23,282 bases of DNA. Origin: a virus (taxonomy: Duplodnaviria; Heunggongvirae; Uroviricota; Caudoviricetes). Below the pieces are notes generated by a model. It worked only from the letters and a program-made list of their open reading frames with translations, made no database searches and was not told the origin of the DNA. Positions within the stretch are counted from its first letter, which is position 1; each line of letters opens with the position of its first letter. The translations under genes were made by a program, and so were the position numbers. The stretch lies in IMG/VR virus record IMGVR_UViG_2859799533_000007, one strand, 5' to 3'. Below are positions 761 through 22,385 of the stretch, piece by piece.

Positions 761-1138
761 ATGGACGAACAGTGGGGATACGTCGGGGCTAAATCGCGCC
801 AGCGCTGGCTGTTTTACGCGTATGACAGGCTCCGGAAGACGGTTGTTGCGCACGTATTCGGTGAACGCACTATGGCGACGCTGGGGCGTCTTATGAGCTT
901 GCTGTCACCCTTTGACGTGGTGATATGGATGACGGATGGCTGGCCACTGTATGAATCCCGCCTGAAGGGAAAGCTGCACGTAATCAGCAAGCGATATACG
1001 CAGCGAATTGAGCGGCATAACCTGAATCTGAGGCAGCACCTGGCACGGCTGGGACGGAAGTCGCTGTCGTTCTCAAAATCGGTGGAGCTGCATGACAAAG
1101 TCATCGGGCATTATCTGAACATAAAACACTATCAATAA
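761..1138 (+). CDS. insB: IS1 InsB (transposase catalytic part; made as InsAB' by frameshifting)
   Basis: ORF …[51 protein letters not shown]… The first in-frame Met is at 761, but the insB frame is open upstream to the A6C site. Confidence 0.9.
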
Positions 1139-1153
1139 GTTGGAGTCATTACC

Positions 1154-3000
1154 GCATAATTGCCAATCTCAACGTAAATATCATATGTATCGCCGGATGT
1201 GTTGATCCAGGCGAAATTCGTTAATCCGACGGCTGTACGCTTCCACAAAGCCCCGGTAATTCCTTTGGGGTTTCCATTGCCTGCTCGTAGAACCAGTTCT
1301 GAAATGCCTGCCTGATGTGGGGAACCGACGTTGTAACCAGCGCCACCAATCAATGCGATGTAAACGATGGAACTCGCTTGTGGCATGGTAACCGTAGCCA
1401 GTTTGAACCACCCAGCCCCGCCAGAGAAAGACATCGTTACTGAATTTAAAGTACCAATATCTTTCGGCGTTAATGTTATATCCGCAGTCAATGCTTTTCC
1501 GTTAACTTTTCGGTTAGATGGCACCCTGCTATTCGCATTGTCATTGGCTGCTTTAACTGCTTTTGGCGTTGCGGCCAGCGATTCACTGGTGCTATCAACA
1601 GCACTGCTAAGTTTCACAACACCTTTAGTTGTAAGGCTTGCGTCTTCCATCGCAACTGCACCGGCAATCTCTTCAGCACGATCAGCAGCAGCTTCCGCAC
1701 GGGTCGCAGCGGATTCAGCAGTAGTTTTGCTCTGAGATGCTGCCGTCGCACTGCCTGCCGCCTCTGTTGCCTTCGTGGATGCCGTCGTGGCGCTGCTCTT
1801 CGCTGCTGACGCTTGTCTGGTCGCCTCATCTTTTGAAGCAGACGCCGATGATGCCGATGACGCCGCCGAACTGGCGGACGATGCGGCAGCCGTTTTTGAG
1901 GATTCTGCGCTGGTTTCCGACGCTTTCGCGTTCGTTTCGGATGTCTTCGCTGCGGAAGCAGACCTCGCTGCTGCGCTGGCCTGTTCAGTGGCTTCGCCAG
2001 CCTTCGTTGTGGCTGTTGAAGCAGACGATGCGGAGCTTTCTGCCGATTTTCCGGCGGCGGTGGCACTGGCTGAGGCCTGCCCGGCACTTGTTGACGCTGC
2101 ACTGGCAGACGACGCAGCCGCTGTTTTTGAGCCTGCCGCAGCTGAGGCACTCTGTTCCGCTGCCGTTTCAGAAGACCTGGCGTTTGTCTCAGACGTTTTT
2201 GCCGCCTTCGCAGAATTTGCTGCCGCCGTTGCCGAGGAAGCTGCGCTGCTGGCGCTCGAGGCTGCGTTCGTTTCTGATGATTTTGCCGCCTCTTTTGAAG
2301 CCGACGCATCCCGTGCTGAAGTGGCTGCTTCTGACGCTTTCGTGGTCGCGGTGGATGCAGAAGTGGCTGCTGATTGTTGTGACGCTGCCGCATTCGTTTC
2401 TGACGTTTTCGCCGCACCGGCACTGGTAGCCGCCGCGCTTTTTGAGGACTCTGCAGCGGCAGCACTTTTTAATGCTTCAGTGGCCTTTGTTGATGCCGTT
2501 CCTGCGCTGGAAGACGCTGACTGAGCCGACGACGCGGCCTGTCCGGCTGACGTGCTGGCGGCACGTGCTGAGGCTGCAGCATCGGTTGCATGAGTTGCCG
2601 CCTCGCTGGCTGATTTTTTCGCGGCTGCCGTATTCTGTGCAACCGCGGAGGCGTTACGTGACACCTCTTCCACCATCTGCTCAAAGCGGCGCAGTGCCTC
2701 CGGTCGGACATCATCCTCCGTCATGGCACCGAGAAAATCATTCAGCGTACCTGGTCTGGAACCTTCATAGACGGTAATGGTCCCGGCATGTGAAGGCGGA
2801 AAACCTTCAACCAGCAGGGTGACGCTGTACTGACCATGCTCAACATCCATGCTGTAACGTCCGGCTTCATCCGGATTTTCAGAGGCCACCGTGTTCACCA
2901 CCACCGTGCTGCTGGTTCGTCTGGCCTTCAGCACAATGGTGCAGTTCTGTACTGGTTTTCCTGTGCCATCTTTAAGCACGCCAGAAATTTTTACTGTCAT
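1154..3000 (-). pseudogene. stf: Side tail fibre gene (lambda Stf-like), 3' end removed by IS1
   Basis: N-terminus MTVKISGVLKDGTGKPVQNCTIVLKARR… closely resembles lambda Stf. The ORF runs into IS1 at 1153 and its last ~6 codons and stop (1132-1134) are IS1 sequence. Confidence 0.85.
1668..2643 (-). repeat. Ala/Ser/Thr-rich low-complexity coding repeats inside stf
   Basis: Reiterated motifs such as AAKTSETNA… and SASSAS… in the translation; they create long spurious ORFs in other frames and on the opposite strand. Confidence 0.7.
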
Positions 3001-3818: not shown

Positions 3819-6800
3819 TCAGCTAATCGTGATGCCTGCAGTGGCTTTCTTCATCACCACAACCAGCAAATCGCTGATACTTGCTGTGGGATACCAGTTA
3901 TTTACCAGCCATGCTGACACCGAAAACTCCAGTGTCATGTGACCGTGACCGGCAGGCATATCAATAACACCACTGTAAATCAGCGTATTATCCAGCGCGG
4001 TACGGTTATAAATTTCAGCACCGTTTTTCCGCACTATCAGACGGCATGAGGAGTAAATATCAGTATGCTCTTTCTCATGTTTAGCGCCGCTGAATGCCAC
4101 CGCCGGAATAACAATCTGCCGGTCAAACGGCTGATCGTCATAAACCCTGACGGTAATGGTTCCTGATGGCCACCGCTCTGGTGCACGGGAGTCCCGGGGG
4201 AAAGCTTTGCCCACTGTTTTAACGAGATCGCCTTCAATCTGGTTCGCGGACAATTTTCCCAGAACCCGACAGTTCTCGTTAATAGTGACGTTGTTGAGCG
4301 TCCCGGAGTTCGCATTCACGTTACCGCTGATATCGGCATTTTTCGCCGTCAGCCGCCCGTCCGGTGTCAGGGAAAATGCCGGAGGATTACCGCCGCTGGT
4401 AATGGTGGGAGCCGTCAGATATTTCAGGAACACTTCATTCATAAATATCTGATCGCCCTGACCAACAAACATCGGCTTTGTGTTGCCATTCGCAGGATTA
4501 ATCATCGCAATCCTGTCTGCCGCCAGCAGCACCTGACTCTGCATTCCTGCTGGCGTATTCTCAATACCGGCACCGATACCCGCAATATAAAGGCGTCCGT
4601 CCTGCATCTGCTGCAGTTTCACGGCCCACATGCTGTTCAGGTTATTATTTGTATCAACCTGAACTTTCTGTATCTGCTGGATTGCCGCACTCTGATTTTC
4701 CAGTTTTTTATTGACGGTCTGCGTGATTTCATTGCTGACATTCGTAATGGACGTCCTGATTTCAGCCAGGTCCGGCGCAAGCTGACCGTTATCAATCTGC
4801 GTCCACAGCTCCTGGGCCAGATGTGTTTTCCCGATTTCTCCTTTGAAAAAATCCAGGTAACCTTCCACATCATCGCTCGCCCGACCGACAGCCTCCACGA
4901 ATGCCGATTTGCCAACAGTATTCACACTGCGGATATAAAAATAATAATCATGGCCCGGTTTGATATTGATACTGGCAGCTATCCAGTACAGCGCCGAGCC
5001 AAGATAGCGGGCTGCGGTTTCAACCTGCCTGATATCCGCAATCCGCTTTTCCGAGAACCAGAACTCAAACTGTACCGTCGGGTCATAAACGGCAAGATGT
5101 GGCGTTGCGGTTATCTGAAAATAGCCCGGCGTCAGCTCAATCCGCGACGGTGCTGCCGGTGCGGCAATCCGGAAGGTGGTGGTGGCCGGTTCGCCCTGCT
5201 GGCCATAACTGTTAATTGCCCTGACTGTCAGGGTGTATTCCCCGAGCGGCAGACCACTGAAACGATGCTCTGTATCCGCAGTGATAGCGGTGGTCACCAG
5301 ACGGCTGTCTTCTCCGCTTCCGCTGGTCAGTCGCAGACTGAAGCGCACCCCCTTCACCACCCGCGGCGTGTCCCATTTCGCCTGTGCCAGATACTGGCCG
5401 TCAGCTGCGCTCACCTCCACCGTCAGGTGCTGCACTGCCGGTGGGATGACGCTGTTCAGGGAGCCTGACTGCGGCTCAAAGCGGGCACCGTTATCCACGA
5501 TGGCTTCTTTTTCCGGTACGTGCTGCACCGCCGTGATGGCAAAGGTGCCGTCCGTGTTTTCCCGGACGGAGACACAGCGGAACAGGCGACGGCGCAGTGA
5601 CGGCAGGGAGAGTCCCCACACCCCGTATGTCTCCACACCATCAGGCAGGGTACTGACCTGTATCCGGTCCGGCGCGGGGTGTGCGGTGATGTCCACACTC
5701 ACCGGCTTACCGCTGCCGTTAATCAGGTTCACCGCCGATGTACCTGTCTCCGGCAGGGTAACCTCACGGTCCAGCGTCAGGGTGCGGGTGGCAGCATCAA
5801 TGGACAGGACACGTCCGCCGGTCAGGGTCCCGGCATAGTCATTATCACAGATTTCAATAATGTCACCGGGTGTGTGCCGCAGCCCCTGAGACCCGAGCGT
5901 GAAGTCCACCGTCTGCGTTTCCAGCAGTTCGGTCTTTATCACCCACAGTCCGGCACGGTGGGCCTGACCGCGGCTGGTACAGCCGAACGCGTCCATCTTC
6001 AGCAGATTGCGCCCGTAGCGCAGTATGGCTTCCGGGTCTTCCACCAGTTCCGTGGAGGTCTGCCAGCCGTTCTGCGGGTCGGTGTAATTCACCTCCACCG
6101 CCGTGTGCCGGTCCTTCAGGGCACTGAAGCTGTAGCGGAACCCCACGCCGTTATCATCCACCACCACATCGCTGTTGGTGTACGGCCACACCACATCCGA
6201 CAGGCGGTCCTGAACAAACGTCAGCATCTGGCCGTTCCATACCGGCATACAGCGCATCGCCGAGCAGAAATCACTGAGAACATCCCACGCCTTACGCTGT
6301 TGTGCCAGGTACGCATTGAAGGTCATCCGCGGCTCGGTGCCCCCGAAGCCATCCGGCACCATCTGGTCGCAGTACTGCCCGATGGCATACAGCGCCCACT
6401 TGTCCACATCCGCCGCCCCCAGACGTTTTCCCATGCCGTAGCGCGGGTGAGTCAGCATGTCCCACAGACACCAGGCCGGATTGTTGCTGTATGCCGGTTT
6501 CAGACTGCCGTCCCAGATACCACTGTACGTGCGTTTTTCCGGGTCATAGTTTGACGGCACCTGGATGATGCGACCGCGGATATGGTAGTTCACCGTCATC
6601 TGCTGGCCGCCGAACTGCTCCGCATCCACCTGCAGCCCCACAATGGCCGTGTTCGGGTAGCACTGTTTCACATCGATGATTTCGGTGTATGACGACCACA
6701 GCGTCTTATTCTGCAGCTGGTCCGTGGTGCTGTCCGCCGTCTCCCTGACCATCCGGATGTTAAAGGGCCGGGGAGGCAGATTATCCAGAATCACCGAGGC

Positions 6801-7292
6801 CAGGAACTGTGAGGTGGTCTTGCCGTTAATGGTGACGTCCTTTTCCGTCACCCAGCGGCCATTACGCTGTAACTGAATCAGAATCCGGACAGAGGAAGGA
6901 TTACGGTCGCCCTTTGACGTGGTCTGCACCAGTGACTGCACCCCGAAGGTAACCCGCAGGCGGTCAATGTTCGCGGACGTAATGGTGCGCGTCACCGGTT
7001 TTGCCTTCGTCACTTCCACGCCCAGTCCGGTTTCAGCTCCGGAGGACTCAAAGCCTTCCGGTGGTGTCTGCTCCTGCTCCCCGGCGCGCCAGACCGCCGT
7101 CACACCGTGTATCACGGGATTGCCGTCCGTGTCCGTCAGTGGGGTTTTGTTCACCAGAATACTCTGCAGTCCCTTCACCGGACCTTCTATCGGTCCCTCA
7201 CCAATCGCATCAATCACACTCATCATCTGCGTGGATTTGAGATTATCCTTCGCCTCACGAGGCGTGTGTGCCTTACCGCCACCTTTTCCCAT
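3819..7292 (-). CDS. J: Tail tip / host specificity protein J (central tail fibre)
   Basis: Long similarity to lambda J from [22 protein letters not shown]… onward. Start placed at the ATG at 7292, preceded by GGGGAAGG; the ORF-track extension to 7505 is a non-coding upstream read-through. About 1157 aa. Confidence 0.9.
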
Positions 7293-7392
7293 ACAGCCTT
7301 CCCCTGAATAAATTAACCGCCACTTGCCATTCCGTACAGAAGTCGGATATCCTTCGCCTGAAAAGCATGAAACACATTTCTGCCATGCTAAA

Positions 7393-7428
7393 GAAAACCC
7401 CGGTATCAGCAGATACCGGGGTTTTCTT
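7393..7428. terminator. Perfect 14-bp-stem hairpin flanked by A- and T-runs (bidirectional terminator-like)
   Basis: AAAGAAAACCCCGGTATC-AGCA-GATACCGGGGTTTTCTTT, located in the enlarged I-J intergenic region. Confidence 0.7.
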
Positions 7429-7496
7429 TCATGCCCACCGATAATCCTGTTGGTTAAAACCGGTAATGGCATAAAAATTCTGAATATCTTCACATT

Positions 7497-7524
7497 TTCA
7501 CACACTGACTGTGGCGCTTATAAT
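7497..7524 (+). promoter_or_regulatory. Sigma70-like promoter (TTCACA, 16-bp spacer, TATAAT), antisense to the tail operon
   Basis: -35 at 7497-7502 (5/6 to TTGACA) and a perfect -10 at 7519-7524, in an AT-rich intergenic insert. Confidence 0.5.
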
Positions 7525-7530
7525 TTCGCT

Positions 7531-7628
7531 GCGTTAGTGTTTTTTTGCCCGAGTAACAAAAACAACTCCTTCACATTGATCTTCATTTGTCTGTCCCCGC
7601 AGCTCCGCGATCACTGCGGGATTTTTTT
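7531..7628 (+). ncRNA. Candidate ~100-nt small RNA (promoter to terminator, no convincing ORF)
   Basis: Bounded by the promoter at 7497-7524 and a plus-strand terminator (stem CCCGCAG/CTGCGGG at 7596-7620, then T7 at 7622-7628). No ATG-initiated ORF inside. Prediction only. Confidence 0.35.
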
Positions 7629-7633
7629 ATGTT

Positions 7634-8305
7634 TTATCCCTGTCGCCCGATAACCACGACCTTTCCGCCCCCGCCTTCATCACGGGTGCTGATGTCCTGG
7701 GATATACGGCGGGAGCCAACCAGCATTTCCCCGTAAGGCACCGGCATCGGGTTCCCCTGGGCAATCATGTTATCCAGCGAGGAAAAGTACGTGTTCTGTC
7801 TGCCGTTATCCGTTGCGCGGTAATCCGGTGTTTTTGCCTTCGGGGCCAGCATCTGGGCCACACCGCCCAGAATCATGCTGGCTCCAAGTGAAAACAGCAT
7901 CGTGGTGGCAGAAAAACCACCGGCTGCCAGGGCTGAACCCCATAACGCCATTGATGCCCCGGCAGTGAAGAAAGAGCCCACGATGGCTGCCGCCCCCAAC
8001 ACAATCTGCAGTCCACCCTTTCCGGCCCCGGCCAGTCGCGGCACAATGTGGATGACCGTTCCCTCACCCAGCTGTTCGTGAAGACGGGCATACACCGCCT
8101 CCGGTGCCGTGTCATCACCGGCAATACGTATCTGGTACCAGCCTTCGTTCATCTGACGGCGAAAGCCCGGCATCTGCATCGACAGGGCGCGAATGGCTTC
8201 CGCTGCCGTGTTCACATACAGGCTGAGGCGGCGGCCAAATCGTTGCAAATCCCCGTGAAGGCAGATGGTGAAGCAGCTCACCGTTGCCGCAGTAAATGGT
8301 GGCAT
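7634..8305 (-). CDS. I: Tail assembly protein I
   Basis: …CLHGDLQRFGRRLSLYVNTAAEAIRALSMQMPGF…IHIVPRLAGAGKGG… resembles lambda I. Start chosen at the Met at 8305 (223 aa, as in lambda); the longer track ORF is read-through of the K overlap. Confidence 0.85.
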   Translation of the reverse strand: MPPFTAATVSCFTICLHGDLQRFGRRLSLYVNTAAEAIRALSMQMPGFRRQMNEGWYQIRIAGDDTAPEAVYARLHEQLGEGTVIHIVPRLAGAGKGGLQIVLGAAAIVGSFFTAGASMALWGSALAAGGFSATTMLFSLGASMILGGVAQMLAPKAKTPDYRATDNGRQNTYFSSLDNMIAQGNPMPVPYGEMLVGSRRISQDISTRDEGGGGKVVVIGRQG

Positions 8306-8864
8306 GGTTCGGTACCGAAGCACCAAAGCAGCACAGCAGAATATCGCCCGGCTGTGCAGAGGACAGGGGCACCCGGTAAAAGCCGGTGACCGCCATATTG
8401 TCCAGGTACAGGTTCTGGCCGTTGCGCCACCAGTCATCCTCGCGATGAAAATCCGGCATATCAATTCCCGCCAGATGGTATGCATCCCGGAACAGCGTGT
8501 AACAGTCCGTCACCCCGTGCTCAAAGCGCCGTCCTGTCAGATGTGGCACACAGCGGAATTTATGAATTTCCCCCCGGCAGACCAGCCACCAGGGCAGTGC
8601 GCTTTTTATCTGCAGCCGCCGGTCAGCCTCGCTCAGCCAGGGCAGCTCACCGGGATGACTGTGGACCAGTGCCACAATCTCCCCCTGCATCTCTGCCCGC
8701 AGCCAGTCTTCCGGTGCGATACGAAAATACGCCTCCGGCTCTGCAGAAATATTCACACAAGGGATATACCGCTCCCCCTCCGGCGTGCTTATCACGAAGC
8801 CGCACGACTCCGCAGGCGCACACCGCCGGGCATGCGCCAGAATCGCTGATTCAGTCTGTGTCAT
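8115..8864 (-). CDS. K: Tail assembly protein K (MPN/JAB plus NlpC/P60 domains)
   Basis: MTQTESAILAHARRCAPAESCGFV…HSHPGELPWLSEADRR…GVTDCYTLFRDAYHLAGI… Start ATG at 8864. The C-terminal ~45 residues look non-native and overlap I by ~190 bp, so the 3' end is uncertain. Confidence 0.8.
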   Translation of the reverse strand: MTQTESAILAHARRCAPAESCGFVISTPEGERYIPCVNISAEPEAYFRIAPEDWLRAEMQGEIVALVHSHPGELPWLSEADRRLQIKSALPWWLVCRGEIHKFRCVPHLTGRRFEHGVTDCYTLFRDAYHLAGIDMPDFHREDDWWRNGQNLYLDNMAVTGFYRVPLSSAQPGDILLCCFGASVPNHATIYCGNGELLHHLPSRGFATIWPPPQPVCEHGSGSHSRPVDADAGLSPSDERRLVPDTYCR

Positions 8865-8874
8865 AAACCGGGAT

Positions 8875-9573
8875 TTACTGCGAAAGTTTATTAATGGAAA
8901 GGAAACCGCCAAAATTGCCGACATTCCTGCGCAGTTCACACCCGCGCATGCACTTGCTGCATCTGTCCTTACGGATATCCGTGGTGGGTTTATCGAACTC
9001 ATCCGCCACAGCCCCGCCCGTGTAACCACACTCATCAGAGCGGTAGGTCCACATACAGGTGTTCGCCAGCATGATACGACCGGGAAACAGCGCCCCGTCC
9101 GTCTCGGTCGGTGTAGCCAGCACAAACGAGGCCGTCATGGCTGTCAGCTGCGACATCTGCTCCACCACCCAGCGGTCACTCAGCTCCTGCTCCGGGTCCG
9201 CCTCCGGATTGCCCGCAACGAAATTCACCGCATCCAGAAAACGGGCATACACCCGGCGGCGGACCACCGTGGCCCCCACCAGACTCTGCAGGTCTTCCGC
9301 CATCCCGGTGACCAGACCGAACAGATTGGACACCGTCAGCGACGGTCTGGCACTGCTGCCCCGGCCGTTCATCTCAAAGCCGCTGCCGTCAATCGGGTAT
9401 GCCTCATACTTACGCCCCTGCCAGGTGACCGGCTCCCCTTTTTCATTCAGCTCATTACAGAAAAAATACCGCTCACCACCCTGCACCGTCAGGTCGATTT
9501 CCCAGAGTACCACCCGCGGTGACTGCTCTGACTTAACCGACTCGTTCAGCCTTTCTTCGCGAATATCCTGCAT
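8875..9573 (-). CDS. L: Minor tail protein L
   Basis: 232-aa ORF MQDIREERLNESVKSEQSPRVVLWEIDLT… with the C-terminal Cys cluster typical of lambda L; start overlaps the M stop (ATGA). Confidence 0.9.
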   Translation of the reverse strand: MQDIREERLNESVKSEQSPRVVLWEIDLTVQGGERYFFCNELNEKGEPVTWQGRKYEAYPIDGSGFEMNGRGSSARPSLTVSNLFGLVTGMAEDLQSLVGATVVRRRVYARFLDAVNFVAGNPEADPEQELSDRWVVEQMSQLTAMTASFVLATPTETDGALFPGRIMLANTCMWTYRSDECGYTGGAVADEFDKPTTDIRKDRCSKCMRGCELRRNVGNFGGFLSINKLSQ

Positions 9574-9902
9574 CAGTTCACCACCTGCTTAAACTCCGCG
9601 CTGAACTCAACGCGCAACATCCCGACCCGCGCAGACCACCCGGCACAGGTCACCTTTATCTGCCGGTATGCATAAGGCGGTGTCCACAGAAACGCCTTCC
9701 AGCCACCGTGCTCTGCCAGGAATTCCTCCAGATGCCGGGCTTCCTCCCGGGTCACGGAAAGCGTCACCCGGTATGTTTTCAGGTCAGCACTCAGCCCTGC
9801 CGCCATACGCTGCGAATAGCCGTCACCAAAACGCACTTCACGCACCGATGGCCGCGAGTTCACCTCCATATCCGGTTTCACTTTCCAGCGAAAGGTTTTC
9901 AT
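9573..9902 (-). CDS. M: Minor tail protein M
   Basis: 109-aa ORF MKTFRWKVKPDMEVNSRPSVREVRFGDGYSQR…, same length and position as lambda M. Confidence 0.9.
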   Translation of the reverse strand: MKTFRWKVKPDMEVNSRPSVREVRFGDGYSQRMAAGLSADLKTYRVTLSVTREEARHLEEFLAEHGGWKAFLWTPPYAYRQIKVTCAGWSARVGMLRVEFSAEFKQVVN

Positions 9903-12509
9903 CGCCCGCTCCCCGATAACAGACCGCCATCACGCAACTGCAGCCGGAGCTCATCCTGCGCACCTTTACGGGCCATCTCATACACCGCTTTCATCAGCTG
10001 CGGCCCTGCCTGCCCGTTGGGGCCGTCGTTCTGAATCACCACGTGATTGTTCTGATTAAAATTAATGCCTTCGGCCCGCCGCATCTGCGCCGGACTTCCG
10101 GCACCGCCGACATAACCACCTTCCGCATACCCGCGCATCAGACGATACAGGTTGCCGACACCAATCCGGCTGGTCGCCTCCTTCGTGAAGACAAACTCCC
10201 CGCGATGGACAATCCCCGCAGGCTCATATTTGCCGCCCGTCCCGTAAATCCTCCGGTCGCGAAATGGAAGTTCGCCGCCGCAGCCTGAATGGCCGTCCCC
10301 GTGGAAGCGGATGCGCCACCACCGAAAGCACCACCAATGGCGCTGCCGATACGCCCGACAATCCCCACCATCGCCTGCTTCAGAAAAATCTCTGTCAGCA
10401 TGGAGAGCACGGAACGGGTGAAACCACGCCAGTTCTGTTCGCTGCCGGTCAGCATCGCCGCCATATTCTGTGCAATACCGTCAAAGGTCTGCGTGGCCAC
10501 ACTTTTTACCTGCGAAAAACTGTCCGTCGCACTTTCCGCCCACTCGCCCCAGCCGGACTTCATCCCGGCCATCCAGCTTCCACGAAGCTGCTCCTCCGCA
10601 GACCAGGTGTTCTTCAGTGCAGATGTGGCCTTCGCCAGCGCAGCCGGATTATCACCGTACACCTCACGAAGGCGCTGCTCTTCCGACTCCCGCTGCGCCT
10701 GACGGTCGGTGAGTCCGCGGGCTTTTGCGCTGATTGCCGCCTGCTTCGCGCTCTGCTGCTGTTCAAACCGCGCCGCCTGCTGTGCCAGCTCATTCAGCCG
10801 CTTCTGGTGTTCAATCTTGTCTCCCAGCTCAGCCAGCTGGCGTTTGTACTCCAGCGTCTCTTTCTCATGAGCCAGCAGGGATTTTTCCTGCCAGGATAAC
10901 TGCCGTTTCGTGGCAGCCTCTTTCAGGACCGCATACTGACTTTCCGCCTTCCATAAATCACGGCGCTGCCGGCTGATTTTCTCATTCGCACCGCTGTGTT
11001 TTTCCAGCGTCCTGAGCTCAGCTTCAAGGGCAAGCAGAGCCTCTCTTGCCTGCTCCTCTTCCCTCTCCCCGGCAGAGCGCGTTTTCGGTGATGTATGCTT
11101 TTTACCTGTCAGCTCTTCAGCCAGACGGCTGACGGCTTCCTGCTGCCCAAGACCTTTGCTGACGCCTGTTGCACGCGAGCGGTTGATGTACCCCATTTCC
11201 CCCTGGCGTATACGCGCATCCCGTTCCGCAATGGATTTTCTCAGCGCCAGTTCATCGCGTTTTGTTTTCTCAATAAATACGCGGTTCTCTTCTGCCAGTT
11301 CACCAAACAACGCACCAACGCCGGGCACATTCTTTGTCGTTTCCCAGGCTGACTGAATAAATTCAGCCAGTGCCAGATCCCCTGCACAAGCAGCAGCTTC
11401 ACCTGTTCAACGGTTCCGGCCACCACGTCAGTGATCAGACTGAGTGCCCCCAGTGTATGATCACCTATCCATGCCCATGCGTCAGAAGTCCAGGTTTTAA
11501 CATCGTCCCAGATTTTTTCCACCGGCGTGGCCGCTTTATCAAGTTGCTCCAGACGTGCATTCATGACATCCGCAAACAGGGACATCGCCTCCGTCACCGC
11601 AGCCTGTTTACCTTTCGTGCGCTCAAGCTCATCAATATGGCGTAACTGGGAAACGCTCAGGAAGTTATACTGCTGATTCAGGGAGGCCAGCGCCTTCACC
11701 GGATCTGCTGCAATCCCTTCAAAGGCTTTTTCCACCTTCCCGGCATCGTCCCCCACCGTCTGCAGCCATCTCTGAGAGGTTTCCCCCATGATCCGTAGCT
11801 GCCCGGCGGTATATTTCCCGCTTTCTGCCAGACGGGCCAGATTTTCTGCCGCCTGTCTGATACCACCACCGGCTTCATCGCTGATCACCCCGGCCATTTT
11901 CCACAATTCTGCCGTTGTGGTGGCAGCCGCCCCTCCGGTCAGGATCAGTGAACGCAATAAGGCCCGGTCAGCCTGCTCTGCCTGCCAGGCGGCGGCAGCA
12001 AGCACGGCCAGTACGGCAACCCCGCCACCTGCCGCCACACGGACCACCGACATAAATCGTCCCAGCTCACCGGCATTCCGGGCATTTTCAGCCAGTGCAT
12101 TTGCCGTATCTGACAGCGACTCCTCTGATGATTCAGAGGCATCCCTGATCCCGAGAAGTTCCTCCTTCAGCAGGGTAAGCAGGCTGAGCGGTTCACCGAA
12201 TGAATCGCTGATCTGCCCCCCCTGCTGCAGCATGATAAGGAAGGGATTCTGACCACCGGCAAGCTGAGTGACAATATCCGTGAACTGTGCGGGCAGTGTG
12301 CGCATGGCAGCCTTATACTGTCCGACTCATATCCCGGCTTTTTGTGCAGCCAGCGCCTGTCGGCTCAGCCCCTGTTCAACAGTACTGGCGGTTTTTCTGG
12401 CATCCGCCTCCAGACTGGAAAAATGACGGCGTACCCGGGCCATCTGTTCATCAAACCGGGCCGCATCCAGACTCAAATCAATAACCAGATCACCCGCTGG
12501 CTGGGACAT
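9899..12509 (-). pseudogene. H: Tail tape measure protein H, disrupted by one in-frame stop and two frameshifts
   Basis: N-terminus MSQPAGDLVIDLSLDAARFDEQMARVRRHF… is H-like, then an in-frame TGA at 12327-12329. Reading continues in the same frame to ~11390, shifts frame near the C4 run 11389-11392, and shifts again at the C3 run 10241-10243 before the H-like C-terminus …QNNHVVIQNDGPNGQAGPQLMKAVYEMARKG…. Confidence 0.85.
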
Positions 12510-12903
12510 ATCTCACACCTCCGGAAATCCCCGCTGAAGCCATCATTAATGCAACATCATCCTCGCTGACATCCACCACATTCGCAGAAGGTGAAATATC
12601 GCGCCCTCCGTCCCCTCCGAACCGGACGCCTCCGGCAACTCCTGTCGCTTTCTGCATCAGCATTTCTTCCTCGTCCGGCATCTCCGTCTGCTCTTCCTCA
12701 CACGCTGGAGCAAGCAGACTGAAATCCGCCGGATGCATATCCGGATCGCCAAAAAACAGGCTGAGTACGGCGTACATCAGCCCGGAAAAATGAGCGTCCA
12801 GTTGGGTATCCTGAAAATAATGCGTGCAGTAAAAACGTCGCCAGTCGGCATATTCGGTGGATGTCATCCCGGCAAGCATGGCGCGCCAGTCGGGTCTCCC
12901 CAT
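12490..12903 (-). CDS. T: Tail assembly chaperone T domain (normally made only as the G-T frameshift fusion)
   Basis: …RPDWRAMLAGMTSTEYADWRRFY… followed by an acidic stretch and GGVRF/GGVRYV motifs; its stop lies 17 nt after the H start codon, a lambda-like overlap. The frame is open upstream to 12927. Confidence 0.75.
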   Translation of the reverse strand: MGRPDWRAMLAGMTSTEYADWRRFYCTHYFQDTQLDAHFSGLMYAVLSLFFGDPDMHPADFSLLAPACEEEQTEMPDEEEMLMQKATGVAGGVRFGGDGGRDISPSANVVDVSEDDVALMMASAGISGGVRYVPASG

Positions 12904-17328: not shown

Positions 17329-18833
17329 TCATGGCATGGCCATGAGCATTTTCACGTCCGCATCACCGTCTGCTGACGTCTGTGACACGCCACCCCGCAC
17401 CGCTGCCGGTGAATGATTCGCCATGAAATGTTCAAACAGGGCGGTTGTGGATGCAGAGACCGGTTCGGCCTTACCTGATCCCGCAGCCAGCACCGCCCGG
17501 GCGTTCTCCACGGTCATTCCCGGGCAGGCCGCCAGTTTTTCAGCCTGCGCTTCTGCCCCTTTTGCCTCATCCAGGGCCATGATCTGATCACGAAGTGAGG
17601 GCCCGGCATCCGCCAGTGGTGCAGCCGCCAGGATCGGGCGGGCTTTTTCCACCGTCATCTCCGGCATCGCCGCCAGCGTTGCCGCCAGTTGTTCACGACC
17701 GTTCGCTTCTTCACACGCCATAATGCGATCGGCTTCACTCTGCGCGGATGCCACCGGCTGCTGCGGTGCCGCCGCGGCCAGAATCGCCCGGGCCTGTTCA
17801 ACGCTCATGCCCTGTTGCCCTGCCAGCATCGTGGCAAGCTGTTCACGTCCTTTCGCTTCCTGGCATGTCAGGATCCCCATCACTCGCTGGTTCTCCTGCA
17901 CGGCGGCTTCCGTTGCAGTTAATTGCGGCATAGTGCCTCCTCTGACATTACTGTTCAGCGCCGTGGCCATCACACTGATGGCATCCGACGCATTGATTAA
18001 TTCATCCGCCAGCCCGGCCTCAATGCCGGACTGACCTTCAAAAACAGCGGCCTCTGTTCCCGTGACTGCATCAACAGACAGACCGGTAAACATCGCCACT
18101 TTTTCGGCAAACATCCGGCGCGCCGCATCAATCCGCTGCTGCATGTCCTGGCGAACCTCTGCCGGCAACGCTTCAAACTGATTGCCATCCACCTTGTGCG
18201 CCCCTGAGTAAATCAGCGTGATATCCACACCGGCCTGCGCCAGATGACCGGCATAGCTGACATGGCTCATCATCACGCCAATGGAACCGATACGGGATGT
18301 CTGGGTAACCAGCCGTCGGGAGCAGGCCGACGCCAGCAGCATGGCCGCAGAACAGGCCGTGTCATTACACAGTGCCCAGACCGGCTTCTGCTGCCGGAGG
18401 CGGTAAATCATGTCAGCGCAGTCAAACACGCCGGCGGCCTGCCCGCCCGGACTGTCAATGTCCAGCAGTATGCCCCGCACCTGGCTATCTGCCATTGCCT
18501 GCTGAAGACAGGTGACAATGCCGTCATAGCCAGTCATTCCGGAAAATGGCCGCATCCCCCCAGCCGGTGCACCAGCGTGCCGGTCACCGGCAGTACCGCA
18601 ATACCGTTCACCACCCGGTAAACACGGGCCGGTCGTTTACCTCCGGCCATGTACTCGTCCGTTTCAGCCAGCATCCCGGGAGCATCAAGCTGTACCTGCT
18701 GTTGCGGTACCGAAAGACTTGCTGCCCCCATCTCGCGCCCCAGCGCGCAAAAGAAAACCCGCGCATAGGCGGGCTCCAGAAGCAGCGGTTCATTGAATGC
18801 TGCTGCAATAATGTGTGAAAGATTACGTCTCAC
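17329..18833 (-). pseudogene. C: Head maturation protease C with nested scaffold Nu3 (S49/ClpP-like), frameshifted
   Basis: N-terminal segment (…AAFNEPLLLEPAYARVFFCAL…) is in a different frame from the rest (…SGMTGYDGIVTCLQQA…KPVWALCNDTACSAA…). The frames join at the C6 run at 18556-18561. Confidence 0.85.
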
Positions 18834-19595
18834 GTGGTGTTGTCTCCTCTTCCGGCCTGCGACTCTCCGCTATCTGCTGCTGATACGCCTGCGCTATCCA
18901 CACCGGACGTGAGAGTCCGGCTTTTTCCCGCTCTGCAGATTCCCTGACCTGCTGGCAGAAAATGTCCTGATAATCCTCGCCCATCAGCGCCAGCTCTTTC
19001 TCATACGTGCTCAGTCCGGCCTCAATGCGCATCACTGATTCCTGAACCTCCTTGAGCCCGTCAATGGCCATTCTTCCGGCTCCAATCCACTCAGCCCGTG
19101 ACCAGGCTGATCGCGCCTGATAAAAATCAAACCGTGCCCGTGGCGGACGAATAATCCCCGAAGAAGTGCCTCTTCCAGCCAGCAGGAAAACATCTGCGTG
19201 GCCAGCCGGGACGCAATAAATTTTCGCCGCCCCATAAAATAGCGCCACGACTCATTGGCGGATGCGCGGGCACTTGAGTAACTGACCTTCGAGTAATCAC
19301 GGGACAACTGTTCGTAGGAAACGCCAAGACCGGCGGCGATATACCGCAGCAGCGCCTGTTCAAGCGCCGAAAATCCATTGTCTGAATCCTGCGCGGTCTG
19401 AAGTTTCAGATCATCACCGGGGAAAAGGTGCGGAATTTTGACACCGCCCAGCATCACGCTATTCGTGTCATACCAGGTGGAGAACTTATCCAGAATATTA
19501 ATAAGCGGATTATCCTTCTGCCCCTGCGGCGCACCGGCGATATATTCAAAGGCCTTTTCGGTATCAAGGTCACTTTCAATCGTCGCTGCATACAT
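18823..19595 (-). pseudogene. B: Portal protein B, 3' half only, with an internal frameshift
   Basis: Two frames carry portal-like sequence and join at the C4 run 19156-19159. Only ~257 codons are present (lambda B is 533 aa); upstream of 19595 the frame reads AT-rich non-coding sequence. Confidence 0.75.
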
Positions 19596-19783
19596 CGCCT
19601 TTATGAAAAGACAGGAAAAAATAAAATTTAAAAACAGTACATTACGAATGCTCAGACCTATCGTTTAAAGGAGTCGCAATACACACTGCAATACACGATT
19701 ATTTATAAGATGAGCGGCATCCGTCATAAAGCTGGTGGATGCTTTTTCTATGCATATATGCACAGTTTTAGTGGGCGTTAATG

Positions 19784-19807
19784 TCGATATAGGGATCCCC
19801 ATATCGA
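19784..19807. repeat. 24-bp near-perfect palindrome TCGATATAGGGATCCCCATATCGA (operator-like)
   Basis: Differs from its reverse complement at one symmetric position pair only. Confidence 0.6.
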
Positions 19808-20025
19808 GATTGGATACCAGGCTTTTTTAATCAGGCTGGTGGGCTTTACCTGTTTTGTATGAGTGGTCATCATGACCATGTCATAACAAAAACCCCATAT
19901 TCGTGGTTTTTCTGTGTCGGGCTATTCTGTCGTTGCTGTGCTGATTTGGCTGGTGGGCTGAATCATCATTACGGCGATGCAGCTATGTAGACGTTCCGGC
20001 CTCCTCAAATTGAGGATTGTGGAAG

Positions 20026-20187
20026 AATCAATGGGTTAGTCTTACTTTCCCGACATCCCCCAATGGGGGGTTTCGAAACAATCAATAGCTTAGGCTTACT
20101 TCCCCGATTTCCTGCATTGCAGGTTTTCGAAATAATCAATGGGTTAGGCCATCGTGCAATTTTGCACTTTGCCAGCCAGCGCAATGT
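20026..20187. repeat. Tandem array of three 54-bp direct repeats, each with an internal GC-rich hairpin
   Basis: Units begin AATCAAT at 20026, 20080 and 20134. Units 1 and 2 share ~40 of 54 positions, with the hairpin arms changed in a compensatory way (CCCCC-AAT-GGGGG versus CCTGCA-T-TGCAGG); unit 3 diverges after position 15. Confidence 0.7.
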
Positions 20188-20397
20188 CGCGTTATCAGTC
20201 CTCAGATGTGAGGGATGTAGCCAGCTTTTCCCCCAGTGGGGGATATCCAGCACCGACGGCTTAACTGTGCGTGCCAGCACAAGGTAGCCTTGAACTACTT
20301 ACTGCATCCCATCTTACAGGCCGTGCCTTCCTGCTTAACTTTTTGCAATGCAACAAGTCAGCCAGCGCAATTTTGCGTTATCGGGAATATCAGCAAG

Positions 20398-20679
20398 TTA
20401 CCGCCGCAATCGTTCCGGCTTCTTCCACTGGTAAGTATTTTTCGCGCTCTCCCTCCGTTGTTGAGAACGGCGACGATATGCCAGCAACTCAAGGACTCTT
20501 GTTCGTATGTTGCGCATATCCACGCCGTTAAGCTCAATACCGTCACGGCGCATCACCTCAGCCACTACACGCACATAATTATCTGCGGTCACGCTGTCCG
20601 GCTGCGTGGCCTGTTCGTCATGCTGCTTGCTGATTCCACAAGCACGGCGGATTAATCGCAGTATTTCGGATTCAGTCAT
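20398..20679 (-). CDS. Hypothetical small basic protein (93 aa)
   Basis: ATG-initiated ORF with coherent charged composition (MTESEILRLIRRACGISKQHDEQ…); weak RBS; I do not recognise a homologue. Confidence 0.4.
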   Translation of the reverse strand: MTESEILRLIRRACGISKQHDEQATQPDSVTADNYVRVVAEVMRRDGIELNGVDMRNIRTRVLELLAYRRRSQQRRESAKNTYQWKKPERLRR

Positions 20680-20803
20680 AGCGTACTACGTTACTTATCT
20701 TTATTCGGCTGCAACTTATCCGGTACGTTTCCGGCAGTTTCCATCAGATAATCGGACAGCTGAGGTGTACTGGCAATAGCGGACACTACCATTTGTTCTT
20801 TTT

Positions 20804-21622
20804 TTAAGCAGCCATCTGATGATATTTTTCCCTGAAGGCTGCCGGGGAGATATTCCCCAGACGAGAGTGACGACGCTGACGATTGTAGAAAATCTCAATG
20901 TATTCCCGTATTACTGAGATGGCTTCATCCCGGTTATTAAAACGATAGTGGCTCAGGCTCTCATTTTTCAGCGTTCCCCAGAAGCTTTCCATCGGAGCGT
21001 TGTCGTAACACTGACCTTTACGCGACATTGATGTTTTCAGACCAGACTGCTCCTGTATGACCCGGTAATCGTATGCGCAGTACTGTGAACCTCGATCAGA
21101 GTGGTGGATTAGCCCGGCAGGTGGGCGCTGGCTCCTGAGCGCCATAAACAGGGCTTTACCTGTCAGCTCTTTTGTCATGCGCTCTCCCATGGCGTAGCCG
21201 ACAATTTCGCACGTATAAACATCTTTGATGCCAGCGAGGTACAACCATCCCTCCTGTGTGGCAACATACGTCAGGTACGCCACCCAGACCTGATTTGGTG
21301 CTGTAGGAGCGAACGTCTGGTTCAGCAGATTTGGCGCAACTGGCAGATTGTGGTTCGGGTTCGTAGTCGCTCTGAACTTGCGTTTCTGCTTACAGCGTAG
21401 CCTTAGCTCCTTACGAAGACGTGCCAGTCGGTCACGACCAACGATGATGCCATTCTCTGCCAGCTCCGTCTGGAGCCGCCGGGTTCCATATGTTTCGCGA
21501 GTGCGGATATGTGCCACCTTAATCTCCAGTTTTAGCCGCTCATCACTTTGTTTTCTGTCTGAGGGTTCATGCTGTACCCAGTTGTAATAACCGCTCCTGG
21601 ATACACCAAATACCTGACACAT
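20804..21622 (-). CDS. IS3-family transposase OrfB (DDE domain)
   Basis: 272-aa ORF …HHSDRGSQYCAYDYRVIQEQSGLKTSMSRKGQCYDNAPMESFWGTLKNE…; the frame is open upstream toward the frameshift window. Confidence 0.9.
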   Translation of the reverse strand: MCQVFGVSRSGYYNWVQHEPSDRKQSDERLKLEIKVAHIRTRETYGTRRLQTELAENGIIVGRDRLARLRKELRLRCKQKRKFRATTNPNHNLPVAPNLLNQTFAPTAPNQVWVAYLTYVATQEGWLYLAGIKDVYTCEIVGYAMGERMTKELTGKALFMALRSQRPPAGLIHHSDRGSQYCAYDYRVIQEQSGLKTSMSRKGQCYDNAPMESFWGTLKNESLSHYRFNNRDEAISVIREYIEIFYNRQRRHSRLGNISPAAFREKYHQMAA

Positions 21623-21657
21623 CGCTTCAATGGGAAATTGTTGTCGCCATTGTTCGA

Positions 21658-21960
21658 TTAACGCGTATTTTTCAGCGACTCCTGTGCAAAATACGCTGTT
21701 GCTTTTTTTAATATATCTCGCTCAAGGCGAGCTTCATTTAACGCCTTACGCAGTTGCAGAATTTCAGATTCCAGTTCAGCCACCGTGCGGGAACCAGGAG
21801 TACCGAGCCCTTTTCTGGCGGCGGTAACCCATTGTCCTAAAGTGCCTTCAGGAAGGGATAATCGGGAAGCGCCTTCACTGATCGAAAGTTGATTTTCAAG
21901 AACCGTTCTGACAGCTTCGGCTTTGAACTCTTTAGAGTAACGTTGGTTTTTTCTGCTCAT
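21658..21960 (-). CDS. IS3-family transposase OrfA (helix-turn-helix plus leucine zipper)
   Basis: 100-aa ORF MSRKNQRYSKEFKAEAVRTVLENQLSISEGASRLSLPEGTLGQWV…; an A7G slippery run (plus-strand T7 at 21703-21709) sits near its 3' end. Confidence 0.9.
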   Translation of the reverse strand: MSRKNQRYSKEFKAEAVRTVLENQLSISEGASRLSLPEGTLGQWVTAARKGLGTPGSRTVAELESEILQLRKALNEARLERDILKKATAYFAQESLKNTR

Positions 21961-22115
21961 TATTAGCTCCTTCTGATGCCATTCTATTTCAGGAAGGAGT
22001 GTCCGTTAAACTCAGGCTACCTCAATCAGCGCCAGTCAGTCAGCCGGAGCAAAAACAGAAGCCCCACTCATTCCGGAACAACCTTCTTAATAACCCATTT
22101 CAACGAGAAAATCCT

Positions 22116-22385
22116 ATGTCAGAAATAAAATCGCTGGTCACTGCTGAGGCAGTGAAGGAAGTCCTGCGCTCTGAAGAAGTCCGGAGCGCACTGAAACAGC
22201 AACTTCGGCAGAACCTTGAGGCGCGTCTTGATGCAGAAGTGGATTCAATTCTGGATGAACTGCTGGGCGCACCGACTGTTCCGGAGCCGGAAGGCATTGC
22301 GGATGACAGTGCTGTTTCAGATGGCGTCGGGTCTCAGCCTGACGGTAGTGAAGGGCCTCAGCCTGACGGCGAAATGATGATGTAA
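22116..22385 (+). CDS. Hypothetical acidic protein (89 aa) upstream of the holin
   Basis: ATG at 22116 within the longer track ORF; MSEIKSLVTAEAVKEVLRSEEVRSALKQQLRQNLEARLD… with an acidic C-terminus; weak RBS. Confidence 0.45.
   Translation: MSEIKSLVTAEAVKEVLRSEEVRSALKQQLRQNLEARLDAEVDSILDELLGAPTVPEPEGIADDSAVSDGVGSQPDGSEGPQPDGEMMM

Follow-up and report, generated by a model that had tools for sequence, protein, structure and literature searches.

The expanded space between the tail genes I and J in the phage genome analyzed here raises the question of whether it holds a functional element and, if so, whether that element is an RNA, a small protein, or an inert remnant. In lambda, these two genes lie ~60 nt apart. 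In the stretch under study (23,282 nt of a tailed virus, referred to below as the window), the tail operon is encoded on the minus strand and the I–J gap comprises 340 nt (7294-7633), because the ATG of J occupies 7291-7293 and the stop codon of I occupies 7634-7636. An earlier reading, the first-pass annotation, had described an enlarged, AT-rich gap of 341 bp; the expansion and the AT richness are evident (~42% GC versus 56 to 63% in the flanks), and only the size needs correcting to 340 nt. It had further proposed an independently transcribed moron coding for a small RNA antisense to the tail operon, and this proposal matches the published small RNA PasB, whose sequence in E2348/69 is identical. 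The J protein of the window matches gpJ of 55989 and E2348/69, and the prophage as a whole is decayed and defective. The features of the region are collected in Table 1.

Table 1. Features of the I–J gap and its borders (window coordinates)
Feature	Position	Strand	Remarks
J, tail tip/host specificity gene	3819..7293	-	1157 codons + stop; left border of gap; from ORF list and translation
Shine-Dalgarno of J, GGGGAAGG	7298-7305	-	
Weak promoter-like site TTGCCA-18-TATCCT	7324..7353	+	scores 9/12
Hairpin	7390..7429		core of a separate W-type module, 7294 to ~7467
Upstream promoter block AAAAATTCTGA-ATATCT-TCACATTT	7472..7497	+	conserved; AT-rich
-35-like hexamer TTCACA	7497..7502	+	16-bp spacer; present in the window allele
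22-codon ORF	7518..7586	-	present in ORF list; not conserved
-10 hexamer TATAAT	7519..7524	+	TATAAT, TATCAT or AATAAT at the same register in all alleles
pasB gene	7531..7628	+	predicted 98-nt primary transcript; published coverage-based RNA 7546-7628 (83 nt)
C/U-rich single-stranded body of PasB	7565..7584	+	unpaired in MFE and consensus folds; likely seed
PasB terminator/Hfq-binding module	7596..7628	+	7-bp GC-rich stem 7596-7602/7614-7620, 11-nt loop, U7 at 7622-7628
I, tail assembly gene	7634..8314	-	right border of gap; convergent with pasB; start from the length of E2348C_1436 (681 bp)

The promoter-plus-terminator unit between I and J encodes PasB (pathogenicity-associated sRNA B), a known sRNA of pathogenic E. 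coli described by Pearl Mizrahi et al. in 2021 (PMC8550237); the unit is real, the first reading of it was correct, and the feature is already known rather than new. Aligned with the validated pasB locus of E2348/69, the window shows 100% identity from ~7478 to 7660. The 83-nt RNA is matched at 83 of 83 positions (7546-7628), including the C at position 27 of the E2348/69 allele, and the complement of the northern probe, AGCTCCGCGATCACTGCGGGATT, is found exactly at 7601-7623. In EPEC E2348/69, PasB is encoded on the minus strand (NC_011601.1 1466343..1466261) between E2348C_1436 (I) and E2348C_1437 (J) (PMC8550237), and it has been detected by RNA-seq, RIL-seq, and northern blotting as a strongly Hfq-dependent RNA of 83 nt (PMC8550237 tables S2 and S6). 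The same study reports baseMean values of 482 and 1082 for pasB and of 3 to 15 for the flanking tail genes, log2 fold changes of -6.8 and -2.4 upon deletion of hfq, and 37 RIL-seq interactions/partners, in which PasB is nearly always the second RNA of the chimera (PMC8550237). It is more abundant in overnight static LB cultures than in DMEM (PMC8550237). This pattern is opposite to that of the CRP-repressed Spf, a comparison that at most hints at CRP-dependent expression of PasB and is confounded by growth phase and oxygen.

The published work on PasB reports no target validated by mutation and no common target motif, and Pearl Mizrahi et al. list no EHEC homologue (PMC8550237). Its distribution has been surveyed by Zhu, Shabalina & Storz (2026; bioRxiv 10.64898/2026.05.13.724894), who place the seed immediately upstream of the terminator. 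PasB has neither an Rfam family nor an annotation in RefSeq. The covariance search against Rfam that had been suggested as a check recovered nothing specific: the Rfam 15 models gave no hit at the gathering threshold over the whole window (those for AgvB, AsxR, Esr41, STnc100, and IsrG included), and searches of the gap and of the hairpin at permissive E-values yielded only subthreshold, terminator-shaped chance matches. AgvB, AsxR, and Esr41 were rejected as identities for the unit, as they occupy a different site and give no model match.

Taken singly, the signals of such a unit differ in how far they exceed chance. Terminator-like sites alone in the 1.4-kb region do not (2 found versus 1.7 expected), promoter-like sites number 3 versus 0.7 expected from shuffles, the PasB fold is about as stable as its shuffles (z = -0.7), and a covariation test of the terminator is uninformative because the stem is invariant. 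The strongest evidence against a chance arrangement is conservation, namely the identity to the validated locus and the wide occurrence of the region among E. coli genomes. Further detail comes from a comparison set of ~70 distinct PasB-like loci. GCGUUA, a U run, CUCCUU, AUCUUC, and an unvarying terminator are common to 34 distinct RNA alleles, and it is the positions adjacent to these conserved functional motifs that vary. The plus-strand intrinsic terminator proposed at 7596-7628 was recovered complete with stem, loop, and U7, the stem being invariant in 23 of 23 alleles. The body carries two motifs, the anti-Shine-Dalgarno-like (A)CUCCUU at 7565-7571 and AUCUU(C) at 7579-7584, which is invariant in the alignment columns; this pattern suggests that 7565-7584 is likely to be the seed region.

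The same comparison bears on the reading that the gap encodes a small protein, from the 22-aa minus-strand ORF or another short ORF, rather than an RNA. Short ORFs do exist in the gap, where we listed all of 20 aa or more, and "hypothetical proteins" are annotated there in some phage records. The 22-codon ORF named by the first-pass annotation as the sole coding alternative is indeed present, but its start codon changes from CAT to CGT in the B and D alleles, so that these related alleles lack the start yet retain the RNA motifs. As had been stated, no ATG occurs on the plus strand between 7531 and 7628, and the transcribed strand has no ORF between promoter and terminator. The annotated hypothetical proteins vary between records and are absent from RefSeq, which marks them as inconsistent gene calls, and the RNA binds Hfq and behaves as an sRNA in RIL-seq (PMC8550237). 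We therefore regard a small protein as scarcely credible. The unit might alternatively be an inert relic, i.e., promoter- and terminator-like sequence carried along by recombination and functionless in the strain of the window. The decay of the host prophage and the promoterless PasB-like remnants beside sodC in other prophages would fit such a history; against it stand the 100% identity, promoter included, to an expressed, Hfq-bound RNA and the wide occurrence of the element with its motifs conserved and neighboring positions variable, and we consider it very improbable.

The element is indeed widespread. A 431-bp query covering the gap and its flanks (window 7250-7680) is matched in 1672 of 5426 complete E. 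coli genomes (~31%), and an exact-pattern scan of genome contigs found matches only in E. albertii and in one contaminated contig, a result that tells little more than that the element is restricted to Escherichia.

The near-consensus plus-strand sigma-70 promoter of the first-pass annotation holds up as a match in the window allele (TTCACA-16-TATAAT, 7497-7524, scoring 11/12). Its -35 hexamer is not conserved, TTCACA being missing from the type C, type D, and Sakai alleles; what is conserved among related alleles is the block lying upstream, TCTGA-N6-TCACA. Its two half-sites, TCTGA (7479-7483) and TCACA (7490-7494), show no variation, but the central spacer positions do change among alleles and paralogues. 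The block is retained in 67 of 71 distinct loci, which were chosen solely on the 3' part of the RNA, and in tandem arrays it recurs in each unit. Its center (7486.5) lies 32.5 bp before the -10 and at about -44.5 from the predicted +1, G7531.

These properties make the block a candidate activator site, perhaps CRP-like, and/or an UP element. It matches the CRP core TGTGA-N6-TCACA at 9 of 10 positions and has AAA/TTT flanks, a degree of likeness expected ~0.9 times per 23 kb by chance. The C of TCTGA is invariant and never G in the alleles, at a position where CRP prefers G, and the location of the block at about -44.5 from the predicted +1 differs from the class II CRP position at about -41.5. 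LacI-family (Cra-like TGAA-N4-TTCA), LexA, FNR, and sigma-54 readings of the block, judged by eye, were set aside, since alleles differ at positions on which these readings depend.

A further conserved element, (G/A)CGTTA, lies 7 nt past the -10 and is retained even in divergent paralogues. The coincidence of GCGUUA with the promoter-predicted +1 (7531) suggests a primary transcript of 98 nt, whose start would precede the published 5' end (7546) by 15 nt. The ~100-nt transcript of the first-pass annotation thus exceeds the published RNA of 83 nt (7546-7628), but the promoter and the conserved GCGTTA favor a primary transcript of 98 nt from 7531.

We consider it highly probable that 7472-7628 on the plus strand is a self-contained pasB moron cassette, which is expressed in the lysogen, is bound by Hfq, and acts in trans through its C/U-rich middle. 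The cassette consists of an AT-rich block, a sigma-70 -10 (here with a -35), an RNA of ~83 to 98 nt lacking an ORF, and an intrinsic terminator. In the lysogen, pasB would be transcribed independently while the late operon is silent; Hfq would be bound through the terminator hairpin and U tail; and the unstructured CUCCUU/AUCUUC middle would pair in trans with purine-rich, ribosome-binding-site-like stretches of mRNAs, the partners being both chromosomal and accessory mRNAs. For the identical sequence in E2348/69, expression, the size of ~83 nt, and Hfq-dependent stability have already been demonstrated (PMC8550237). We infer the +1 at 7531, the identity of the seed, repression through occlusion of ribosome-binding sites, and control by a factor acting at TCTGA-N6-TCACA.

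PasB might also, or mainly, act in cis on the late mRNA, to whose I–J intercistronic segment it has perfect complementarity. Once the prophage is induced, or a phage sharing the spacer superinfects, a 98-bp duplex would form just past the I stop, which could trigger RNase III cleavage and alter the expression of J-lom-stf or the stability of the transcript. The geometry is favorable, the whole of PasB falling within the late transcription unit, on the other strand, with its 3' end only 5 nt from the I stop, and the orientation and position of the cassette are constant in 159 of 159 gaps examined; moreover, PasB is abundant in lysogens, in which the tail genes are silent. However, the complementary stretch contains neither a ribosome-binding site nor coding sequence, the many trans partners in RIL-seq are typical of a trans-acting sRNA, and PasB is intact in the defective prophage of the window, where a phage-directed role would be useless. 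We hence view such a cis role as unlikely and favor trans action by PasB.

The J-proximal half of the gap lies outside the PasB unit. The perfect bidirectional hairpin noted there by the first-pass annotation is real, with a stem longer than claimed: 18 bp (7390-7407/7412-7429) around a 4-nt loop, with a folding z-score of -7.9. It is terminator-like on both strands because it is flanked by an A run and a T run, and its probable role is that of an intrinsic terminator preceding J. During lytic growth, the hairpin would not stop Q-modified polymerase. Its effect in the lysogen would be to keep stray late-strand transcription from reaching J-lom-stf and, in the window allele, also to stop plus-strand read-in toward the pasB promoter. 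The W-type module of which it is the core replaces the shorter E-type leader of E2348/69 and occurs at ≥95% identity in 1446 of 5426 genomes. A distant BLAST search of E. coli genomes and phages for the origin of the module met it only in the I–J context, and the "second place" that this search gave per record is probably the palindrome matching itself. The hairpin is lost in one related locus and is therefore dispensable, at least for prophage maintenance.

This module (7294-7467) could itself encode a second small transcript, either a plus-strand RNA of ~75 nt running from the weak promoter-like site at 7324-7353 to the hairpin or a minus-strand RNA of ~90 nt running from the pasB upstream block to the hairpin. 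The full terminator shape of the hairpin on both strands and the 9/12 score of the promoter-like site are compatible with this proposal, as are the folding of minus-strand 7385-7500 into two hairpins plus a terminator (z = -7.1) and the presence in E-type relatives, too, of a terminator-like hairpin that is oriented with late transcription and lies right behind the pasB promoter. The z-scores, however, are driven by the terminator hairpin alone, the promoter scan detected no minus-strand promoter, and we found no comparative or expression support for the site at 7324-7353. Among the RIL-seq/RNA-seq entries listed for E2348/69, none falls in the J-proximal half of the gap, and Sakai Sp12 shows no Hfq peak between I and J. 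Conservation cannot separate these options because the module is nearly invariant. A second transcript seems to us quite unlikely, and a terminator in front of J is the reading that we prefer for the hairpin.

Comparison with relatives places PasB in a broader setting. The RNA lies between I and J, antisense to both, in phages as well as in E2348/69, 55989, and Sakai Sp12. Among relatives, this gap spans 233 to 925 nt and holds zero to four cassettes or sodC; it is a hotspot for one to four PasB-like cassettes or sodC. In some relatives, sodC lies beside a promoterless PasB-like 3' remnant and does not replace the RNA. The first-pass annotation had held that homologous I–J inserts coding for a conserved protein would speak against an RNA; sodC is such a protein in some relatives, but it stands beside the PasB-like remnant, and the window has no such ORF. 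Since sodC occupies the same gap, the gap is a general moron slot.

The EcOnc22-24 RNAs of O157 Sakai appear to be PasB-like RNAs as well, an equivalence that is ours rather than one stated in the papers. They are plus-strand RNAs of ~85 nt that are destabilized without Hfq (Tree et al. 2014, PMC4104026, Table S2), and their function is listed as unknown (PMC7873438). Genome versions differ in their coordinates, by about +128 to +146 as judged from AgvB; after this correction, EcOnc22 and EcOnc23 overlie PasB-like RNAs in the I–J gaps of Sp15 and Sp14, the two prophages that the comparison covered, EcOnc24 belonging to Sp11. EcOnc10 (Sp12) was rejected as a window-type PasB, since it is unrelated and maps close to the lysis genes; Sp12 has no EcOnc entry in its I–J gap.

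A tentative extension, which we hold to be possible though doubtful, is that PasB is one member of a larger, unrecognized family of I–J-gap sRNAs that are under one activator and might also act in cis. Such a family would take in EcOnc22-24 together with tandemly arrayed paralogues, two to four per array, whose bodies differ, and all its cassettes would share a TCTGA-N6-TCACA operator ~32 bp upstream of the -10, often without a -35. Lambdoid prophages would then supply a bank of coregulated sRNAs, with an activator that is CRP-like or phage encoded, and the antisense placement of the cassettes relative to the late mRNA could affect in cis the tail genes of induced or superinfecting relatives.

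The reading of raw sequence thus recovered a validated regulatory RNA that neither Rfam nor RefSeq marks. The biology of PasB is not new, having been described in 2021 and surveyed in 2026; the present analysis shows the sequence identity, anatomy, conservation pattern, and distribution of the element and the hotspot nature of the gap. Modest additions, offered as testable leads, are a likely earlier 5' end, an operator-like block common to PasB-like cassettes, the link to EcOnc22-24, the I–J gap as a slot for one to four sRNA cassettes or sodC, and a strong, previously uncharacterized, probable terminator module in front of J.

Among known systems, the closest is PasB of E2348/69 itself, which shares with the window the RNA and promoter sequence, the I–J location, the antisense orientation, the terminator, and the probe target. 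The two differ in that the host prophage is another one, that of the window being defective, and in the J-proximal half of the gap, which is a 195-bp W-type module with an 18-bp hairpin in the window and a 93-bp E-type leader with a different hairpin in E2348/69. EcOnc22-24 share the I–J gap, the antisense orientation to tail genes (as compared in Sp15 and Sp14), the length of ~85 nt, the promoter block, CUCC, AAUCUUC, and the CCCGCAG/CUGCGGG terminator; they are divergent alleles that differ in the 5' part and the loop and have no -35. AgvB and AsxR (RF02702 and RF02703) are likewise short, Hfq-binding RNAs encoded by prophage morons of pathogenic E. coli and form families whose members are conserved in the 3' part but variable in the 5' part. 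In contrast to PasB, they lie downstream of PR'/stx, measure 51 to 60 nt, show no sequence or covariance-model match, and act as sponges of core sRNAs, an action not known for PasB.

The prophage sodC-F1/F2 morons of O157:H7 (PMC2569942) are a further parallel: in related prophages, we find sodC in the I–J gap, likewise antisense and with a terminator of its own. They differ in being protein coding and in being accompanied by PasB-like sequence only as a promoterless 3' remnant; the window has no sodC. Finally, the moron was defined by Juhala et al. in 2000 (cited in PMC4104026) as extra DNA of deviating composition, lying between genes that adjoin each other in related phages, with its own promoter and factor-independent terminator and with transcription in the lysogen. 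In the window, we found 340 nt of such DNA (42% GC versus 56 to 63%) with both a promoter and a factor-independent terminator, and expression in the lysogen is taken from the published RNA-seq of the identical locus. Like the morons so defined, the cassette splits genes that are adjacent in lambda, carries its own promoter and terminator, has an odd base composition, and is expressed from the prophage; unlike them, it carries an RNA instead of a protein gene and lies antisense to the late operon.

The late operon of a lambda-like prophage, comprising tail and head genes, lies on the minus strand of the window, and the spacer between its genes I and J extends over 340 nt (7294-7633) with a GC content of about 42% versus 56 to 63% in the flanks. 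In lambda, the same spacer is about 60 nt long. The gap is therefore as enlarged and AT rich as the first-pass annotation had described it, and a consensus scan recovered the plus-strand sigma70 promoter and intrinsic terminator that it had placed there (3 promoter-like sites in the scanned region versus 0.7 expected). The plus strand has no ATG between these two elements, in keeping with the reported lack of an ATG-initiated ORF, and the 22-codon minus-strand ORF named as the sole coding alternative is present in the ORF listing. All of the elements described are thus present, with a small correction to the length of the bidirectional hairpin, whose perfect stem is 18 bp rather than 14 bp (fold z = -7.9 against shuffled sequence).

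Features of the I–J gap in the window
Feature	Position	Strand	Basis or remark
Gene J start	7293	-	left border of spacer
Perfect 18-bp hairpin stem	7390-7407/7412-7429	both	A-run and T-run at its flanks
Conserved block AAAA(A/T)T-TCTGA-N6-TCACA-TTT	7472-7497	+	allele comparison
pasB promoter TTCACA-16-TATAAT	7497-7524	+	consensus scan, 11/12
Intrinsic terminator	7596-7628	+	same consensus scan as promoter
Gene I stop	7634-7636	-	right border of spacer

The promoter-plus-terminator unit is a known small RNA (sRNA) gene, pasB, first described in enteropathogenic Escherichia coli E2348/69 (Pearl Mizrahi et al., 2021), and is not novel. The covariance search against Rfam proposed in the first-pass annotation did not lead to it: no family matched at gathering thresholds, and permissive thresholds returned chance matches of terminator shape only. 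A BLAST query of 431 bp covering the gap and its flanks (7250-7680) matched 1,672 of 5,426 complete E. coli genomes, with enteroaggregative strain 55989 as the best match, and the region is without annotation in every one of the matched genomes. Among phage records, Stx phages share the I-proximal half alone (7468-7680) at about 79% identity. PasB is an 83-nt RNA of prophage PP6, located on the minus strand of NC_011601.1 (1466343..1466261) between E2348C_1436 and E2348C_1437 and detected with the northern probe AATCCCGCAGTGATCGCGGAGCT (PMC8550237, Table S6). The complement of this probe lies at 7601-7623, and the E2348/69 locus and the window are 100% identical between about 7478 and 7660. 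PasB accordingly maps to 7546-7628 on the plus strand, in support of the prediction of a moron-encoded small RNA. At RNA position 27 (window 7572), both loci have C; an allele with A there is also common and is probably the PasB-2 of Zhu et al. (2026, bioRxiv 10.64898/2026.05.13.724894).

The properties published for PasB therefore belong to an RNA of identical sequence. RNA-seq and RIL-seq detected it, and northern blotting confirmed it; its baseMean values of 482 and 1,082, against 3 to 15 for the flanking tail genes, are about 30 to 300 times higher, and deletion of hfq changes its level by log2 values of -6.8 and -2.4, indicating strong Hfq dependence (PMC8550237). Its level is higher in overnight static LB than in DMEM. 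In chimeras, it nearly always occupies the second position, as is characteristic of an sRNA; RIL-seq, which identifies partners and not the regulatory outcome, yielded 37 of them (PMC8550237). Zhu, Shabalina and Storz (2026 preprint) place PasB in a phage structural operon, describe it as the least variable of the Pas sRNAs, note that enteroaggregative and "other" strains often have no Pas gene besides it, and assign its seed to the single-stranded stretch directly upstream of the terminator. Its promoter, neighboring hairpin, and distant relatives are discussed in neither paper (Pearl Mizrahi et al., 2021; Zhu et al., 2026).

To these we can add a comparison of about 180 loci, drawn from phage and genome records and from two IMG/VR pattern scans, one anchored on promoter plus terminator and the other on the 3' part of the RNA only. 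The set contains 34 distinct RNA alleles of at least four types. PasB-like alleles share GCGUUA 7 nt downstream of the -10 element, followed by a U-run, a variable segment, (A)CUCCUU, a variable pentamer, an invariant AUCUU(C), and a terminator with variable loop and U-tail. The terminator stem, CCCGCAG/CUGCGGG, never varies and hence cannot show covariation; in the consensus fold, the middle of the RNA is unpaired. Since the distance of (G/A)CGUUA from the -10 element is unchanged even in paralogues with wholly different bodies, we favor G7531 as the primary 5' end, which would give a 98-nt transcript; the published 83-nt form, whose 5' end comes from read coverage, would then be an approximate or processed species.

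The same comparison bears on the promoter. The -35 element of the first-pass annotation (7497-7502) is present in the window allele, but types C and D and the Sakai alleles, among them EcOnc22, which is known to be expressed, have unrelated sequence in its place. What is conserved instead is an upstream block with invariant half-sites and two variable central spacer positions, found in 67 of 71 distinct loci selected independently of it, the other four being promoterless remnants adjoining sodC. It could be an activator site, possibly for CRP. It matches 9 of 10 positions of the CRP core, and PasB levels are higher in glucose-free LB, inversely to Spf, which is consistent with CRP activation, although growth phase and oxygen are confounding factors. 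Against CRP stand the frequency of such core matches, expected by chance about once per 23 kb, the block center at about -44.5 rather than -41.5 and a C of TCTGA that is never G in the compared loci.

The J-proximal part of the gap occurs in two unrelated forms, freely combined with different PasB alleles. The W form, seen in the window, spans 195 bp with the 18-bp bidirectional hairpin; 56 loci have it, as do 1,446 genomes at an identity of at least 95%. In its commonest allele, an additional G (AAAGAGAAACCCC) creates a bulge in the A/U extension of the stem, which is perfect in the window allele, and in one IMG/VR locus the entire hairpin is deleted between short TTTCT repeats. In E2348/69 and most Stx phages, the gap has the E form (92 to 116 bp), in which a hairpin of 9 bp, ACAGGCACC/GGTGCCTGT, precedes UUGUUUUU when read in the direction of the late operon; one stem pair varies among C-G, T-A, T-G, and C-A. 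In the E-type J leader, near-identical loci differ by one to three extra copies of the 7-nt TCTGATG (e.g., L133, 1000-1020). In both forms, a terminator-shaped hairpin oriented like the late operon separates the pasB promoter from the J ribosome-binding site. Such a hairpin might end a second small RNA, which we consider improbable: the consensus scan found no promoter feeding it, and neither the E2348/69 table entries listed nor the Sakai Hfq data include a transcript from this piece. An intrinsic terminator is the best reading. Q-modified polymerase would ignore it during lytic growth, and in the lysogen it would shield J-lom-stf and, in the W form, also the pasB promoter from stray transcription.

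Across lambdoid prophages, the 159 gaps examined, a sample biased in that every locus was picked for PasB-like sequence, hold one to four cassettes or sodC. A single cassette is present in 139 (typically 233 to 342 nt), two in 4 (about 420 nt), three in 1 (711 nt), and four in tandem in 4 (about 910 nt). Each tandem cassette has its own TCTGA-N6-TCACA block, -10 element, (G/A)CGTTA start, differing RNA body, and terminator (e.g., L151, 300-1275, and L148, 4400-5110, both on the minus strand; also L140, L143, L154, L161, L173, L174, L179, and L180); the Pas sRNA papers do not mention such arrays (Pearl Mizrahi et al., 2021; Zhu et al., 2026). The remaining 11 gaps (about 850 nt) contain sodC, a gene for Cu/Zn superoxide dismutase (Pfam Sod_Cu, 3.9e-32) that is oriented antisense to the tail operon; behind it come a terminator of its own and a PasB-like 3' remnant that lacks a promoter (e.g., L139, gap 918-1773, sodC 1050-1577 on the plus strand; also L152, L153, L156-L158, L160, and L165). 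Prophage sodC-F genes of O157 are already known (PMC2569942). Inserts coding for a conserved protein, which the first-pass annotation had set against its RNA, thus have a partial counterpart in these related gaps, but the objection does not apply to the window. One PasB-like gene between I and J comes from a 3,408-bp record deposited as Streptomyces flavalbus (L012, NZ_JBHTEB010000006.1; GC 58.6%); its flanks are those of an E. coli-type prophage (amino acid identity 99% for I and 97% for J), and it is almost certainly contamination.

pasB and its promoter are intact despite the decay of the window prophage, which is defective (441-1138, 1132-3000, 9899-12520, 17329-18833, and 19032-23282). 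IS1 (DDE_Tnp_IS1, 761-1138) truncates the tail-fiber gene. The open frame of the tape-measure gene switches among three frames, which points to two frameshifts or more; the S49 head protease is split, and the portal gene is cut at about 19600, with IS3-family transposase genes beyond it (20804-21960 and 22629 onward). In the K/I region (8100-8900), the alignment to the 55989 prophage breaks at about 8259-8270, and about 90 bp are lacking. Tail gene K may also be damaged, as the ORF in the K frame does not stop at the expected position.

The cited data support independent transcription of the pasB cassette from the prophage and loading of PasB onto Hfq by its terminator hairpin and U-tail. Its C/U-rich, unstructured middle would base-pair with core- and accessory-genome mRNAs at purine-rich, Shine-Dalgarno-like regions. 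PasB may also act in cis after induction, given its full complementarity to the late mRNA in the I–J spacer. The promoter block, the tandem arrays, and the orphan terminator module are to be taken as leads rather than established findings, as is a link to three sRNAs of O157 Sakai.

These RNAs, EcOnc22, EcOnc23, and EcOnc24 (prophages Sp15, Sp14, and Sp11), are plus-strand species of about 85 nt that are destabilized without Hfq (Tree et al., 2014, PMC4104026) and whose function is listed as unknown (PMC7873438). The raw coordinates of EcOnc22 and EcOnc23, the two compared with NC_002695.2, lie 22 to 24 nt inside I–J gaps. At 1.94 Mb, the Sakai sRNA positions in Table S2 of Tree et al. (2014) differ from NC_002695.2 by about +137 to +146 nt, as gauged from AgvB, located with Rfam (L135, 621-682). 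Mapping the EcOnc RNAs onto this record therefore requires a correction. Because the older genome version is 128 bp shorter overall, the shift at 2.7 to 2.9 Mb is likely to be roughly +128 to +146. The Sakai prophage Sp12 has a window-type gap of 341 bp, for which the EcOnc data list no Hfq peak. With the shift applied, the Hfq peaks of EcOnc22 and EcOnc23 fall on PasB-like RNAs adjoining the I stop (L133, 1137-1227), which suggests that EcOnc22, EcOnc23, and EcOnc24 are PasB-like RNAs of O157 Sakai.
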